Program-made: the position numbers and the translations under genes
Source of the DNA: a virus
Taxonomy: Duplodnaviria > Caudoviricetes
Strand: one strand, 5' to 3'
DNA: 64,000 bases
Virus record (IMG/VR): IMGVR_UViG_3300022602_000026
Notes under the pieces: generated by a model
The model's input: the letters and a program-made list of their open reading frames with translations, nothing else
What the model was told of the DNA's origin: nothing
Databases searched by the model: none
Part shown: piece after piece, positions 15,346-22,878 of the stretch
Position numbering within the stretch: the first letter of the stretch is position 1
Layout of the letters: every line of letters starts with the position of its first letter

Positions 15346-16362
15346 ATGTCTAACTTATTTAAAAAAGCCGCGCTATTCACTGATATACATTTTGGATTAA
15401 AGTCAAACAGTACTCAACACAACGAGGACTGTTTGAACTTTGTTCGATGGGCCACTGCCAAAGCACTAGAAGAAGGGTGTGATACTGCATTCTTTTTGGG
15501 CGATTGGCATAATAATCGAGCGTCAATAAATATATTAACATTGGGCTATAGCCTTCAAGCATTGGAGCATTTAAATGCTAATTTTTCTCGTGTGTATTTT
15601 ATCCCTGGCAATCATGACCTTTACTATCGGGATAAGAGAGATGTACAGAGCGTTGAATGGGCAAAGCATCTCCCTAACGTTGTTATATGCAATGATTGGA
15701 CTACAGTTGGGGATTGTGTTATCGCTCCTTGGCTTGTGGGAAATGATTACACTCGTATACCCAAACTAAAAGGTAAATATATGTTTGGGCACTTTGAATT
15801 GCCCGGATACTTAATGAATGCCATGGTAGCCATGCCCGAACACGGTGAGCTACGTAGAGAAAATTTTTCAAACTTTGATCATGTTTTTACGGGTCATTTC
15901 CACAAAAGACAAACACAAAAGAATATAACATACATAGGAAATTGCTTCCCGCACAACTACGCCGATGCTGGGGACGACGATCGAGGTCTTACCATACTAG
16001 AGTGGGGCAAAGAGCCCGAGTATCATGCGTGGCCTGACCAACCCCGTTATCGCGTATTCAATCTAAGCGATGTGTTACAACACACCGAAGCAATGTTGCA
16101 ACCCGGGATGCATGTGCGTGTGAATCTAGATATTGATATCAGTTACGAGGAATCGACATTTATCAAAGAAACATTTATCAACACCTATAAGTTGCGCGAG
16201 ATTACATTAATTCCAGCAAAGGTAACTGAATTAACCGAATATCAAATGCAGGGCAACATTGAATTTGAAAGTGTAGATCAAATTGTGCATAGCCAACTTA
16301 CCAACATAGACAGTAAACAATACGACCCCAATTTATTATTAGACTTGTACCGAAACTTATGA
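15346..16362 (+). CDS. gp47: Recombination nuclease, Mre11/SbcD-like (T4 gp47)
   Basis: Metallophosphoesterase motifs FTDIHFG, GDWH, GNHD, GHFE, GHFH. Confidence 0.92.
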   Translation: MSNLFKKAALFTDIHFGLKSNSTQHNEDCLNFVRWATAKALEEGCDTAFFLGDWHNNRASINILTLGYSLQALEHLNANFSRVYFIPGNHDLYYRDKRDVQSVEWAKHLPNVVICNDWTTVGDCVIAPWLVGNDYTRIPKLKGKYMFGHFELPGYLMNAMVAMPEHGELRRENFSNFDHVFTGHFHKRQTQKNITYIGNCFPHNYADAGDDDRGLTILEWGKEPEYHAWPDQPRYRVFNLSDVLQHTEAMLQPGMHVRVNLDIDISYEESTFIKETFINTYKLREITLIPAKVTELTEYQMQGNIEFESVDQIVHSQLTNIDSKQYDPNLLLDLYRNL

Positions 16363-17828
16363 CACCGTTAGAAATTATCTCCAGAGACTATTTACTTAAA
16401 ACTGTAAAGTATTATGATGGCGATGACTGTGTTGTAAAGAACTATAAAGACTTTGAAGATGAAATTGTTTTTTGGAAGGTTATGTTATACGAAGCCTGTA
16501 ACATACGTCCCGGATCTAATATTGCAGTCTATGATCGAACCATAAGATTCAATTACTGTACACTGTTTTTAGCAGCAGCCGAGTTGGGTGCTAGGCTGAT
16601 TGTTATTCCCGACTATCCGGTTGAAGGCACTCCAAGAAACGACAAGATGGATCGATTTGTTGAGGTCTACGGTAGATTAGATCTCTGCATATTTGATGAC
16701 AGTGCTGGTACTAGTCAAGCCTTAATAGATTTGACCAACTACTATGGCAATATGACTATTGCCAAAACAATGCTAGACACTTACGAGATTCAAGATCATA
16801 AAAATTATGAGCTAATGTCTACTACTGTGTTTGCCAAACCCGAAGATATCTTTATTATTACCACTACCAGTGGCAGTAGCGGTGAGCCAAAATTAATCCC
16901 GTTCTTGCATCGTCAGATGTACAGAAACGGCAAACGCAATGTAAAAGTATTGGGATTCAATCCCGAAGATCGTGCATGCCATACTAGAAACATGCATCAT
17001 CCTTTTGTGTTAACTGATTTTTTCCTTCCCTCGTTGTGCGGGATCAATCATCACTACAGTATTCCCTTTATTTCGGCCTTTGAAAATGATCAAGCAATTT
17101 TAAAAGCCTTAGACTTTATAAACACACACAAAATCAATCAAATTGCGTTTAGTTCTAGAGCTGCAATGGAAAGTCTGTTGTCGTATATGTCTGACAACAA
17201 TTTGCAGTTCAAGCACGAATTCAATATCATAGTCGGCGGGCAGTATGTGCCTAAAAAGTATCTTGAATACGTCAAGAAAACCAACGTGACAAAAATAATA
17301 GCCAATCTTGGAACGTCCGAGACCATGGCACCGTTGTTAATGAAGCATATAACTCCGCAGGACGATCTCGACACCTATGATGAACAGTTCCTGGGCTATC
17401 CTCCCGACGACACTTATCAATTTCGACTTGAAGGCGAGCGATTGCTAGTTGCTTGTCCAAGTTTGTACGAAGGCTACAAACAACTTGACGACAGATTCAG
17501 CGGAGATACTGTAAATGGTTTTTATCATTTGGGTCGAGAAAATTTTTATAGAATTGATCACATTGAATTTAAACTGTCCGATGTTGTGCAAGTGGTCAAG
17601 GACACATTCTCTGGAGACTTTGACATGTGCGCCGATACCAAGTATCAAAATTTATATCTTGCAGTCTGGAGCGGCAAAATTGATTTTGCAGCAGTCAACG
17701 CTGCAATGCAACGAAGACTAATGGTTACATTTCGAGATTACGATTACTTGGACAAATCAAAATTTACCACTGGTATCAAATTAGATCAAATAGCAATACG
17801 TAATCATTTTAGAAGGAAAACGTCGTGA
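16359..17828 (+). CDS. Adenylate-forming (ANL/AMP-binding) enzyme, copy 1
   Basis: A3 P-loop TTTSGSSGEPK, A5 LGTSE, A7 LDDRF, A8 LGRENFYRI, A10 lysine in TGIKLD; start overlaps the gp47 stop (ATGA). Confidence 0.75.
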   Translation: MTPLEIISRDYLLKTVKYYDGDDCVVKNYKDFEDEIVFWKVMLYEACNIRPGSNIAVYDRTIRFNYCTLFLAAAELGARLIVIPDYPVEGTPRNDKMDRFVEVYGRLDLCIFDDSAGTSQALIDLTNYYGNMTIAKTMLDTYEIQDHKNYELMSTTVFAKPEDIFIITTTSGSSGEPKLIPFLHRQMYRNGKRNVKVLGFNPEDRACHTRNMHHPFVLTDFFLPSLCGINHHYSIPFISAFENDQAILKALDFINTHKINQIAFSSRAAMESLLSYMSDNNLQFKHEFNIIVGGQYVPKKYLEYVKKTNVTKIIANLGTSETMAPLLMKHITPQDDLDTYDEQFLGYPPDDTYQFRLEGERLLVACPSLYEGYKQLDDRFSGDTVNGFYHLGRENFYRIDHIEFKLSDVVQVVKDTFSGDFDMCADTKYQNLYLAVWSGKIDFAAVNAAMQRRLMVTFRDYDYLDKSKFTTGIKLDQIAIRNHFRRKTS

Positions 17829-21399: not shown

Positions 21400-22878
21400 A
21401 TGACCGTAGTAACTAGAGCGTGTATTAATCAAAACATTTTAATACACCAACACAATCACACCCAAGGATCTGTCTTAGACAAAACTTTTAATTACAACGA
21501 GTTTTGTATGATGATTGACTACTGGAAGTTGTTATTAATCGACAAGTACAATGTACAACGCGGCAATACCATGTTCATTGACTTTGAATTGATCAATACC
21601 TACTACTACAGTCTTATTTTTGCTGCTGCAGAATTAGGTATTATCATGATCATTGATTGGCCGCATTGTTGGAAAGAAGAAGATCTATTGGATCATAAAG
21701 TAACAATGTACGGCACAGTTGATCTAGTTGTTACACAAAAAGAAAAGTTCAACAATCCTGGAAGACATTGGGATGTGCAACGAAACTTGAAGTACGCAAA
21801 AAACATTATCTTTCAAGACGAATTTGACGAATATTCGGTCAAGGACAGTGCGATATTTCCCGGCATAGACCAATTGGTCTGGGCTCGAGAAGACGATGCT
21901 TTTTGTTATACTTGCAGCAGCGGCACCACTGGATTGGCCAAACGTATCGAAAACGATCATAAAAAGATCTATGATATGGCAACAAACATGGTCAAGCATT
22001 TGGAATTTGATCCCAATGCTCGAGTATTGCACACTAGAAATATGCATCATGGCGCCAGTTTATGTTATCATTTCCTTCCGGGATTTATTGCCGGCGGGGA
22101 ACAATTTACCTACACACTGACCGATCACACCGATGAAGCAGTTGCAAAAATAGTTGCGTTTACTCAACTGCACAAACTAAATCAATTGTTCTTGTACATT
22201 CCCGAATTCTTGTTGTCATTTTTAAAACAAATTGATCCTGTACAACATCCGGTAAGAATCAGTACGCTATTTCAAATTACACTCGAAGTTGCACATCTAG
22301 TTAAAGAAAAAAACATCCAGCGAGCATTTTCTCCGTTTGGGGATAGCAACATTGCTGCCGGTATCTTTGTTAAAAAAGTAGATAAGAACACAGACTTGAC
22401 CAATTACGAAGTTGGCGATATGGGTCCGCCAATCACAGAATTATTTGACTGCGAAGTTCGTGCCGATTCCATGTTGTATGTTAGATGTCAAAAATGGAAT
22501 CAAGACTGGCGCTCCAGTGGTGACTTGTTTGAAGTACGCAATGGAAATTTTGTATTCATGGGCCGAGCCAACAATTATAGAATCAATATGCAGTGGATAC
22601 AACAAGCCACTGTAGAAAAACTGGTACGAGATTTGTTTGGCTTTAATAAAGCACACATTGTGATCGATCCCGAAATGCAAAAAGTCTATGCAGCAATATG
22701 GGAACACAATCCCGAAGCTGAACAAGCACTACACCAATACTTTGAAGATAACTTTGAAGAATTAAAAATTGCATACGTTATCAAGAACGAAAAATTTGAA
22801 CACTTCTGGAACAGTAGAAAGATAGATTATTCTAAAATACGCGATTACTGTAGATCTAAATTAGGAATTAAGTTATAA
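21400..22878 (+). CDS. Adenylate-forming (ANL/AMP-binding) enzyme, copy 3
   Basis: YTCSSGTTGLAKRIENDH, TRNMHHGAS, SSGDLF, MGRANNYRI, NSRKIDY. Confidence 0.75.
   Translation: MTVVTRACINQNILIHQHNHTQGSVLDKTFNYNEFCMMIDYWKLLLIDKYNVQRGNTMFIDFELINTYYYSLIFAAAELGIIMIIDWPHCWKEEDLLDHKVTMYGTVDLVVTQKEKFNNPGRHWDVQRNLKYAKNIIFQDEFDEYSVKDSAIFPGIDQLVWAREDDAFCYTCSSGTTGLAKRIENDHKKIYDMATNMVKHLEFDPNARVLHTRNMHHGASLCYHFLPGFIAGGEQFTYTLTDHTDEAVAKIVAFTQLHKLNQLFLYIPEFLLSFLKQIDPVQHPVRISTLFQITLEVAHLVKEKNIQRAFSPFGDSNIAAGIFVKKVDKNTDLTNYEVGDMGPPITELFDCEVRADSMLYVRCQKWNQDWRSSGDLFEVRNGNFVFMGRANNYRINMQWIQQATVEKLVRDLFGFNKAHIVIDPEMQKVYAAIWEHNPEAEQALHQYFEDNFEELKIAYVIKNEKFEHFWNSRKIDYSKIRDYCRSKLGIKL

Follow-up and report, generated by a model that had tools for sequence, protein, structure and literature searches.

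The 64,000-nucleotide stretch IMGVR_UViG_3300022602_000026, called the window in its whole length, is part of a jumbo myovirus-like phage and contains, between the equivalents of T4 gp47 and gp46, a cassette coding for three adenylate-forming enzymes of the ANL superfamily (ANL1, ANL2 and ANL3) and two solute-binding proteins (SBP1 and SBP2). The genes alternate in the order ANL1, SBP1, ANL2, SBP2, ANL3 and, together with one antisense open reading frame (ORF), fill the 6.5 kb that separate the flanking SbcD- and SbcC-like genes (Table 1). This arrangement, including the identity of the two flanks, had been described in an initial annotation of the window; the ORF coordinates and the family matches agree with it, and the two flanking genes directly abut in Pseudomonas phage PA5oct.

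The five genes are translationally coupled. The stop codon of SbcD overlaps the start of ANL1 in ATGA, ANL1 and SBP1 overlap in GTGA, with GTG as the start codon of SBP1, while TAATG and TAAATG form the SBP1/ANL2 and SBP2/ANL3 junctions; all four junctions, already indicated in the initial annotation, were confirmed by sequence reading. The divergent spacer that precedes SBP2 is the sole interruption of the coupling, and the cassette is probably expressed with the recombination genes of the operon that hosts it. SBP2 most likely starts at the ATG at 20479 and not at the alternative TTG at 20440, since a GGAG lies 8 nt upstream of the former and this start agrees with the N-termini of the orthologs, called at 306 and 304 aa.

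Table 1. Features of the cassette and of its flanks, with positions in the window.
Feature	Position	Strand	Support
SbcD/Mre11-like nuclease (T4 gp47 equivalent), upstream flank	15346..16362	+	Pfam Metallophos 30.4 bits; phrog_100 E 3e-60
ANL1, 489-aa adenylate-forming enzyme, phage-only ANL family	16359..17828	+	PF00501 57.6 bits
SBP1, 305-aa Bug/TctC-fold solute-binding protein, predicted exported	17825..18742	+	AF2 model, clade profile
ANL2, 487-aa ANL paralog	18742..20205	+	PF00501 42.0 bits
Small conserved antisense gene, 82 aa	20180..20428	-	orthologs in relatives
Divergent 50-bp spacer between antisense gene and SBP2	20429..20478		sequence reading
SBP2, 306-aa SBP1 paralog with signal-peptide-like N-terminus	20479..21399	+	41.6% identity to SBP1
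ANL3, 492-aa ANL paralog	21400..22878	+	PF00501 37.7 bits
SbcC/Rad50-like ATPase (T4 gp46 equivalent), downstream flank	22885..24654	+	phrog_77 E 3.4e-104
Radical SAM protein overlapping gp46 3' end	24614..25516	+	PF04055 37.9 bits

All three ANL proteins score above the gathering cut-off of the Pfam AMP-binding family PF00501 (29.9 bits). They are paralogs that share the FWK/YWK, NxHH and GRxxxYRI motifs, as had been noticed before; ANL1 is 27.5% identical to both ANL2 and ANL3, and the latter two are 36.6% identical to each other. The AlphaFold2 (AF2) model of ANL1, with a predicted local distance difference test score (pLDDT) of 88, displays the two-domain ANL fold, with a large N-terminal and a small C-terminal domain, and aligns over its full length with McyG, EntE, MenE, AasS, MatB and FadD13 (E about 1e-22, in the PDB and in the Swiss-Prot set of the AlphaFold database). 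Identity to these solved or reviewed members is 12-16%; no subfamily is preferred, and the fold matches fail to discriminate coenzyme A (CoA) ligases from carrier-loading enzymes. None of the NCBIfam subfamily models comes near its cut-off for ANL1-3, the best match for all three being the generic amino-acid adenylation domain TIGR01733, at 31-46 bits versus 317. At the profile level, the phage family is nearest to the carrier-loading adenylation enzymes PheA and EntE, of the non-ribosomal peptide synthetase (NRPS) and aryl-acid types.

The core motifs of ANL enzymes are the A3 P-loop, the A5 Thr-Glu, the A7 Asp, the A8 Gly-Arg hinge and the A10 catalytic Lys. A3, A7 (D378), A8 (G392 and R393) and A10 (K474) are invariant in the three proteins and family-wide; the A5 position reads SET in the ANL1 clade, DTT in ANL2 and DSN in ANL3, and the P-loop of ANL3 ends in GLAK. 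The phage enzymes thus share with CoA ligases, EntE and AasS the PF00501 domain, the two-domain fold (modelled for ANL1) and the A3, A7, A8 and A10 motifs; they differ in forming a distinct family, of low identity to known members, which mostly lacks the A5 Thr-Glu. The Asp residue that anchors the alpha-amino group in PheA (Asp235) corresponds to Gly in the consensus of the aligned profile (HHG) and to Pro in ANL1 (HHP), therefore the substrates are probably not alpha-amino acids; on the same grounds the reading as an amino-acid-activating NRPS-type domain was rejected. A profile search on 1.84 billion representative proteins retrieved at least 265 clusters of this phage family at 50% identity, and each of the 10 clusters checked individually is metagenome-only.

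The AF2 model of SBP1 (pLDDT 92) retrieves from the PDB, at ranks 1-17, exclusively binding proteins of tripartite tricarboxylate transporters (TTT), with TM-scores of 0.66-0.75; BugE, TphC, TBP, MatC, Bug27, AdpC and BugD are among them, and the identity to solved members is 13-19%. The profile of the phage SBP clade alone, obtained from an alignment (A6) of 18 members with SBP2 included, matches in the PDB only TphC (3.8e-7), TBP and BugD. The N-termini are signal-peptide-like in 18/18 members, as judged by eye, with a basic n-region, a hydrophobic core and a small-x-small site, followed by a mature A/T-E-T/N-I start. A second glycine-rich loop, G-x-x-x-G-G-A-x-H-L, is kept in the SBPs, and Cys110 and Cys206 are invariant across the clade.

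In Bug proteins a loop of domain 1 carries the near-ubiquitous signature P-F-x-A-G-G-x-x-D, holding the two waters that bind the proximal carboxylate, and hydroxyl-bearing replacements of this signature occur in some of them (PMC5812351). The signature is not kept in the phage proteins: the corresponding loop is N-P-Q-G-P-G-Y-S-G-T-P-Q in SBP1 and D-A-Q-G-P-S-H-S-G-T-P-Q in SBP2, where S33, G34 and T35 show little or no variation within the clade, and therefore a carboxylate ligand is not assured. Moreover, SBP1 reaches only 19.0 bits with the Pfam family TctC (PF03401), versus a cut-off of 27, and SBP2 has no match; PF03401 is carried by the clade members P0038, P0046 and P0048 and by the slot-mates in locus L013. 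Due to the weak or missing Pfam match and the remodelled loop, the two SBPs are placed in a divergent clade of phage proteins with the TTT binding-protein fold and are not regarded as ordinary Bug proteins. The identification of both as Bug proteins in the initial annotation thus holds for their paralogy and for the fold of SBP1, and not for the carboxylate-loop signature, absent in both. Phage SBPs and Bug/TctC proteins (BugD, BugE, Bug27, TphC/TBP, AdpC and MatC) have in common a two-domain fold of about 300 aa, an export signal at the N-terminus and the second of the glycine-rich loops; differently from them, the phage SBPs have an S-G-T-containing domain-1 loop, which is one residue longer, and an invariant cysteine pair, are phage-encoded and had no relative in a pattern scan on 185,579 prokaryote species genomes.

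The same scan performed with the ANL1 clade gave no relative; neither a bacterial match nor a sign of a chimera was found, either of which would have refuted the interpretation according to the initial annotation. The whole cassette, antisense ORF included, recurs at 94-98% protein identity on contigs of several samples (L015-L017), a variant of SBP1 was found on 16 contigs, and a more distant version of the cassette is present in L018-L020, with the same phage flanking genes in every case; the recurrence on many independent contigs excludes a chance arrangement or an assembly artefact. All the sequencing runs containing this stretch are freshwater metagenomes. Comparison with L015 gave ratios of nonsynonymous to synonymous substitutions (dN/dS) of 0.027 for ANL1, 0.042 for SBP1, 0.025 for ANL2, 0.063 for SBP2 and 0.038 for ANL3, similar to those of the flanking gp46 (0.020) and gp47 (0.072) and indicative of strong purifying selection; these low values indicate that ANL2 and ANL3 are maintained proteins despite the missing A5 residues. 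The GC content is even over the cassette and its flanks (0.40-0.43), which, together with the occurrence on many contigs and the low dN/dS, rules out a recent bacterial import or a chimera. Megablast and tblastn searches with the cassette, ANL1, ANL2, SBP1 and a marine family member found no match in 50,697 GenBank phage records, nor did pattern scans of IMG/VR with ANL2, ANL3 and SBP1 find any.

The origin of the cassette can be followed in related phages. The SbcC/gp46 homolog shows 49.9% identity with its counterpart in PA5oct and 46-48% with the counterparts in phages Atu_ph07 and Phosso. PA5oct shares the local order, consisting of minus-strand structural genes, late sigma factor, SbcD, SbcC and baseplate hub, and has the same late-sigma gene upstream of its contiguous SbcD and SbcC; in Phosso two small unrelated ORFs separate them. 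In the phylogenetic tree of the phage ANL family, ANL1 groups with the genes that follow gp47 in L001, L002, L003, L009, L013, L015 and L018, while the ANL2 and ANL3 clades are sisters, with a support of 94/100, and the ANL3 clade includes L032 and L033. A single unit occurs in L030, whose order is gp47, SBP, ANL2-type gene, antisense ORF, radical SAM gene and gp46. Since ANL2 and ANL3 are sister clades, the SBPs are paralogous and L030 has only one unit, the element that was duplicated is SBP-ANL, represented by SBP1 with ANL2 and by SBP2 with ANL3 and added beside an older resident of the slot, ANL1. The ANL-Bug pair that had been proposed as the duplicated unit is rejected by the tree, by the identities and by L030.

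The slot itself is variable in composition. In L001, L003 and L013 it contains an ANL1 ortholog and a classical Bug protein, 13-18% identical to SBP1, and on the 363-kb contig L009 ANL genes flank gp47 on both sides, with no Bug. L002 (7365-9847) has a gp47 that is 87% identical to the one of the window, while the following ANL has only 40% identity and clusters with that of L009; this contrast indicates that the ANL1 slot is exchanged between close phages. The window and L018 form a recombination mosaic as well, with synonymous divergence (dS) of 0.03 for gp46 and of about 1.9 for ANL1. At 25533-25967 (+) the window codes a 144-aa protein whose orthologs in relatives carry the SegE GIY-YIG family; it could be a homing endonuclease and may help to explain the gp46/ANL1 mosaic.

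The association between SBP and ANL genes extends beyond this slot, as the interpretation in the initial annotation required of other phages. A metagenome scan with the SBP clade yielded 56 loci, reduced to 39 after collapsing the SBPs at 80% identity, and in 11 of these 39 an ANL gene immediately adjoins the SBP. Under random placement within the gene content of the same loci, the finding of 11 of the 13 ANL genes in adjacent slots (66 slots among 281 genes) has a hypergeometric P of 3e-6. The partner ANLs come from at least three lineages: the phage ANL family (L030, L032-L034), full-length enzymes with best match to the benzoate-CoA ligase family TIGR02262, at 244-279 bits (L031, L039 and L082), and a 360-aa FadD-like form, divergently oriented with respect to the SBP and located beside the DNA polymerase (L027 and relatives). 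As the partners are non-orthologous and occupy different genome positions, these loci argue for a functional link between SBP and ANL rather than for a single inherited arrangement.

Other neighbors of the SBP clade point to transport. In seven loci TctB and TctA directly adjoin the SBP, in the order SBP-TctB-TctA or TctB-TctA-SBP, with scores of 492 bits for TctA and 38.9 bits for TctB. These include the phage-like contigs L041 (5715-8541), L044 (1357-4210), L074 (3422-6298), L065 and L075; phage hallmarks are an endolysin right after TctA in L044 (phrog_181, E 8e-41), a phage peptidase and a lipoprotein in L041 and an HNH endonuclease in L075. Since TctB and TctA adjoin the SBPs on contigs with such hallmarks, TTT transport is the best assignment for the clade, and a complete TTT transporter seems to be encoded by some phages. 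As for the product, a sugar N-acyltransferase of the NeuD/PglB/VioB type lies within one to three genes in every locus where an SBP has a canonical ANL at its side and enough DNA is available (L027/28, L031, L039, L047, L052, L058, L061, L079 and L082); L031 also holds a sugar-nucleotide dehydratase/epimerase. The presence of NeuD-type transferases beside canonical-ANL pairs suggests, for those phages, a route in which an imported acid is activated and its acyl group is then used to form an N-acyl amino sugar.

These comparisons lead to a reading in which exported TTT-type binders capture an external acid, TctAB imports it and the ANLs adenylate it, a view that is held here with about even confidence. 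SBP1 and SBP2 would be exported through the Sec pathway to the periplasm, where they would bind small acids as TTT-type binders and pass them to a TctA/TctB membrane unit, either host-derived or encoded elsewhere in the phage genome. The three ANLs would then adenylate the imported acids with ATP in the cytoplasm, and the acyl group would be transferred to a thiol or amine acceptor, possibly CoA or a carrier protein; duplication and divergence of the SBP-ANL unit would have widened the substrate range. The activated acids would most likely be used as acyl donors for phage-directed tailoring, for example amino-sugar N-acylation, with host catabolism as the second option. Thus, among the three fates offered by the initial annotation (feeding a host pathway, synthesis of a small molecule, acylation of a host or virion surface), the comparative data lean to acyl transfer or tailoring, on account of the transferases found beside canonical-ANL pairs.

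Several observations weigh against this reading. The poor TctC scores of the SBPs are accompanied by the clade consensus Q-G-P-x-x-S-G-T-P-Q in place of the Bug domain-1 signature; the A5 Thr-Glu is missing in ANL2, in ANL3 and in most family members; and the 64-kb window contains no TctA or TctB, no carrier protein and no NeuD-type transferase, the last one being absent also beside the ANLs of the phage family. Orphan Bug-type binding proteins without adjacent TctAB are normal for the family (PMC5812351). The search for PF00550 and PF01970 in five partial viral records gave no match and is uninformative, these records being 6-59% complete. In addition, the phage ANL family is mostly found without any SBP nearby, as in L009 and in marine T4-like phages, and therefore does not need one; some phage Bug genes have no ANL in their vicinity, and in relatives the space between gp47 and gp46 is an insertion slot of changing content, so that some of the SBP-ANL adjacency could be due to the slot and not to function. 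The capture-and-activate module originally proposed for this region is thus partly supported, by the folds, by the exclusion of a chimera, by the enriched co-occurrence and by the TctBA genes beside relatives of the SBPs, and has to be amended as regards the carboxylate loop, the duplicated unit and the membrane partner, absent from the window, with ANL1 as a separate and older gene that also occurs without an SBP.

A different use of the same activities would be catabolic: the SBPs would raise acid uptake and the ANLs would trap the acids as acyl-CoA, to be burnt by host degradation pathways as a source of carbon and energy during infection; aromatic acids and dicarboxylates of humic lake water would be possible substrates. 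This explanation is considered unlikely, although the combination of a TTT binder with an acyl-CoA ligase follows the principle of bacterial operons for acid catabolism, the SBP profile finds its best PDB matches among terephthalate binders, several partner ANLs elsewhere are best matched by the benzoate-CoA ligase family and all the runs containing the stretch are from freshwater. In Rhodopseudomonas palustris the TTT binder MatC is functionally paired with MatB, a malonyl-CoA synthetase acting on the same acid, and both MatC (6hke) and MatB (4fut) are among the structural matches of the phage proteins. However, the phage proteins are not specifically related to this pair, and their own pair is duplicated and placed in a DNA-recombination operon, without catabolic genes. 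Furthermore, the ANLs of the window match no CoA-ligase subfamily and are by profile nearest to NRPS-type and aryl-acid carrier loaders, the canonical-ANL versions come with sugar N-acyltransferases and not with catabolic enzymes, and three diverged, strongly selected ANLs exceed the needs of a simple trap.

Somewhat less probable still is that the gap between gp47 and gp46 is a mere hot spot, in which unrelated accessory genes pile up and ANLs and SBPs are independent of each other. The empty gap of PA5oct, the two unrelated ORFs of Phosso and the mosaic relation to L018 would fit with it, as would the different contents of the slot, which can be an ANL alone (L009), an ANL with a classical Bug (L001, L003, L013) or an SBP-ANL-radical SAM set (L030), and the occurrence of the SBP clade also beside PP-loop proteins, radical SAM/SPASM proteins, a halogenase and a chitinase-like lysin. 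On the other hand, the adjacency of SBP and ANL is enriched when measured against the local gene content, the pairing recurs with non-orthologous ANLs at other positions, such as beside the DNA polymerase in L027, and SBP-ANL was duplicated as a unit, with overlapping junctions. Finally, SBPs that act as periplasmic decoys, sensors or superinfection-exclusion factors, with the ANLs devoted to separate cytoplasmic chemistry such as pyridine-carboxylate precursors for rebuilding of nicotinamide adenine dinucleotide (NAD) or small-molecule synthesis, are very doubtful, because clade members found in operons with TctB and TctA point to transport and the window has no link to NAD metabolism, in spite of the remodelled carboxylate loop, the missing membrane partner in the window, the binding of nicotinate or quinolinate by Bug27 and Bug69 (PMC11452294) and the frequent PP-loop neighbors with QueC-, asparagine-synthase- and NAD-synthase-like leads.

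For the preferred reading, import followed by activation, the closest precedent in logic is cyanophage PstS, a phage-encoded periplasmic binder that is exported and works with the host transporter (bioRxiv 10.1101/2021.07.20.453049). Like the phage SBPs, PstS has no membrane channel of its own and is thought to boost uptake during infection; unlike them, it serves an ABC transporter and not a TTT system, binds phosphate and not an organic acid, and is not coupled to an activating enzyme, and the parallel can be taken as an analogy of logic only.

The known auxiliary genes with which phages capture nutrients mostly concern phosphate (PstS), photosynthesis or central metabolism. In the literature, no description was found of a phage system that joins a periplasmic organic-acid binder to a cytoplasmic adenylating enzyme, nor of a phage-encoded TTT transporter, and the only mention of viral TTT components found was a tctA domain hit in SUP05 viruses. 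The window exemplifies a design that recurs in uncultured freshwater phages and whose parts are the phage-only clade of TTT binders, the phage-only ANL family, the contigs with TctCBA and the trio of binder, ANL and N-acyltransferase. If the proposed reading is correct, phages would tap dissolved organic acids in the course of infection, which bears on carbon flow in lakes and on the building of unusual phage surface or metabolite chemistry, and the compact, co-evolved binder/ligase pairs would be of use for ligand and enzyme discovery. A broader and rather improbable scenario is that freshwater phages use a radiation of TTT binders, some with a full TctCBA, together with ANLs to import acids from lake water, and that NeuD-type or other transferases employ them as acyl donors for amino sugars of the virion or of the host surface; in that case, the phage or the infected cell would vary in surface chemistry with the supply of dissolved organic acids.

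Members of the phage ANL family are found in further genomic contexts. In marine T4-like phages an ANL-family gene is located between the tail-tube cap and gp4/gp2-like genes: in L021 (8001-10628, 875 aa) and L023 (8001-9605, 534 aa) the order is gp48/gp53-like genes, ANL, gp4-like (TnsA_N), then gp2 and gp3, and the 875-aa form has a 327-aa N-terminal extension without family match. On the 102-kb T4-like IMG/VR contig L008 (7764-11191), the stop codon of a gene for a 713-aa TonB-dependent outer-membrane receptor, with Plug, beta-barrel and signal peptide, overlaps the start of an ANL-family gene. This receptor would represent a second kind of uptake protein coupled to the family, and a search for it in IMG/VR retrieved only itself. 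Bug genes also occur on their own: the huge-phage contig L026 (8001-10642) has two classical TctC genes with a metallophosphatase between them, followed by a methyltransferase, and no ANL within 8 kb; the first TctC protein bears the NCBI name 'Bordetella uptake gene [uncultured Caudovirales phage]'.

The antisense ORF of the cassette overlaps the 3' end of ANL2 by 26 nt, and a promoter-like site precedes it on the minus strand (20459-20430), identified as a consensus match only. Its orthologs are 82 aa in L015-17, 69 aa in L018-20 and 79 aa in L030; dN/dS is 0.15-0.29 (0.15 versus L015), and no usable lead came from Pfam, PHROGs or the ESM Atlas. The radical S-adenosylmethionine (SAM) gene shares 41 nt with the 3' end of gp46. 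It also occurs in L018, L001 and L009 and, within the cassette, in L030, but is missing from L015 despite the near-identity of that contig. It may belong to the module as an accessory component; genes of the radical SAM/SPASM type are likewise found next to SBP relatives in L077, L078, L080 and L027.

Three PP-loop-like families are frequent neighbors of the SBP clade, as are radical SAM/SPASM proteins and a tryptophan halogenase. PP-loop enzymes, too, adenylate carboxylates. Two of the PP-loop-like families, with an invariant SGGxDS motif, are coded in L037 (6906-8060, 384 aa) and L036 (4217-5509, minus strand, 430 aa); PDB profile searches with both gave nothing significant, and their assignment relies on the motif and on an Atlas feature match (0.94). 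L036 also contains a 308-aa member of the third family, which is QueC-like (2389-3315). In the 96-kb contig L037 a tryptophan-halogenase-family flavoprotein (4168-5802, 194 bits) is coded directly upstream of the SBP-clade gene. Finally, in L082 a GTP cyclohydrolase I gene (135 bits) and a QueE-like N-terminus, recognized by eye, are found on the minus strand at 3-299 and 5146-5892, which hints at a 7-deazaguanine pathway near its SBP-ANL-NeuD trio.

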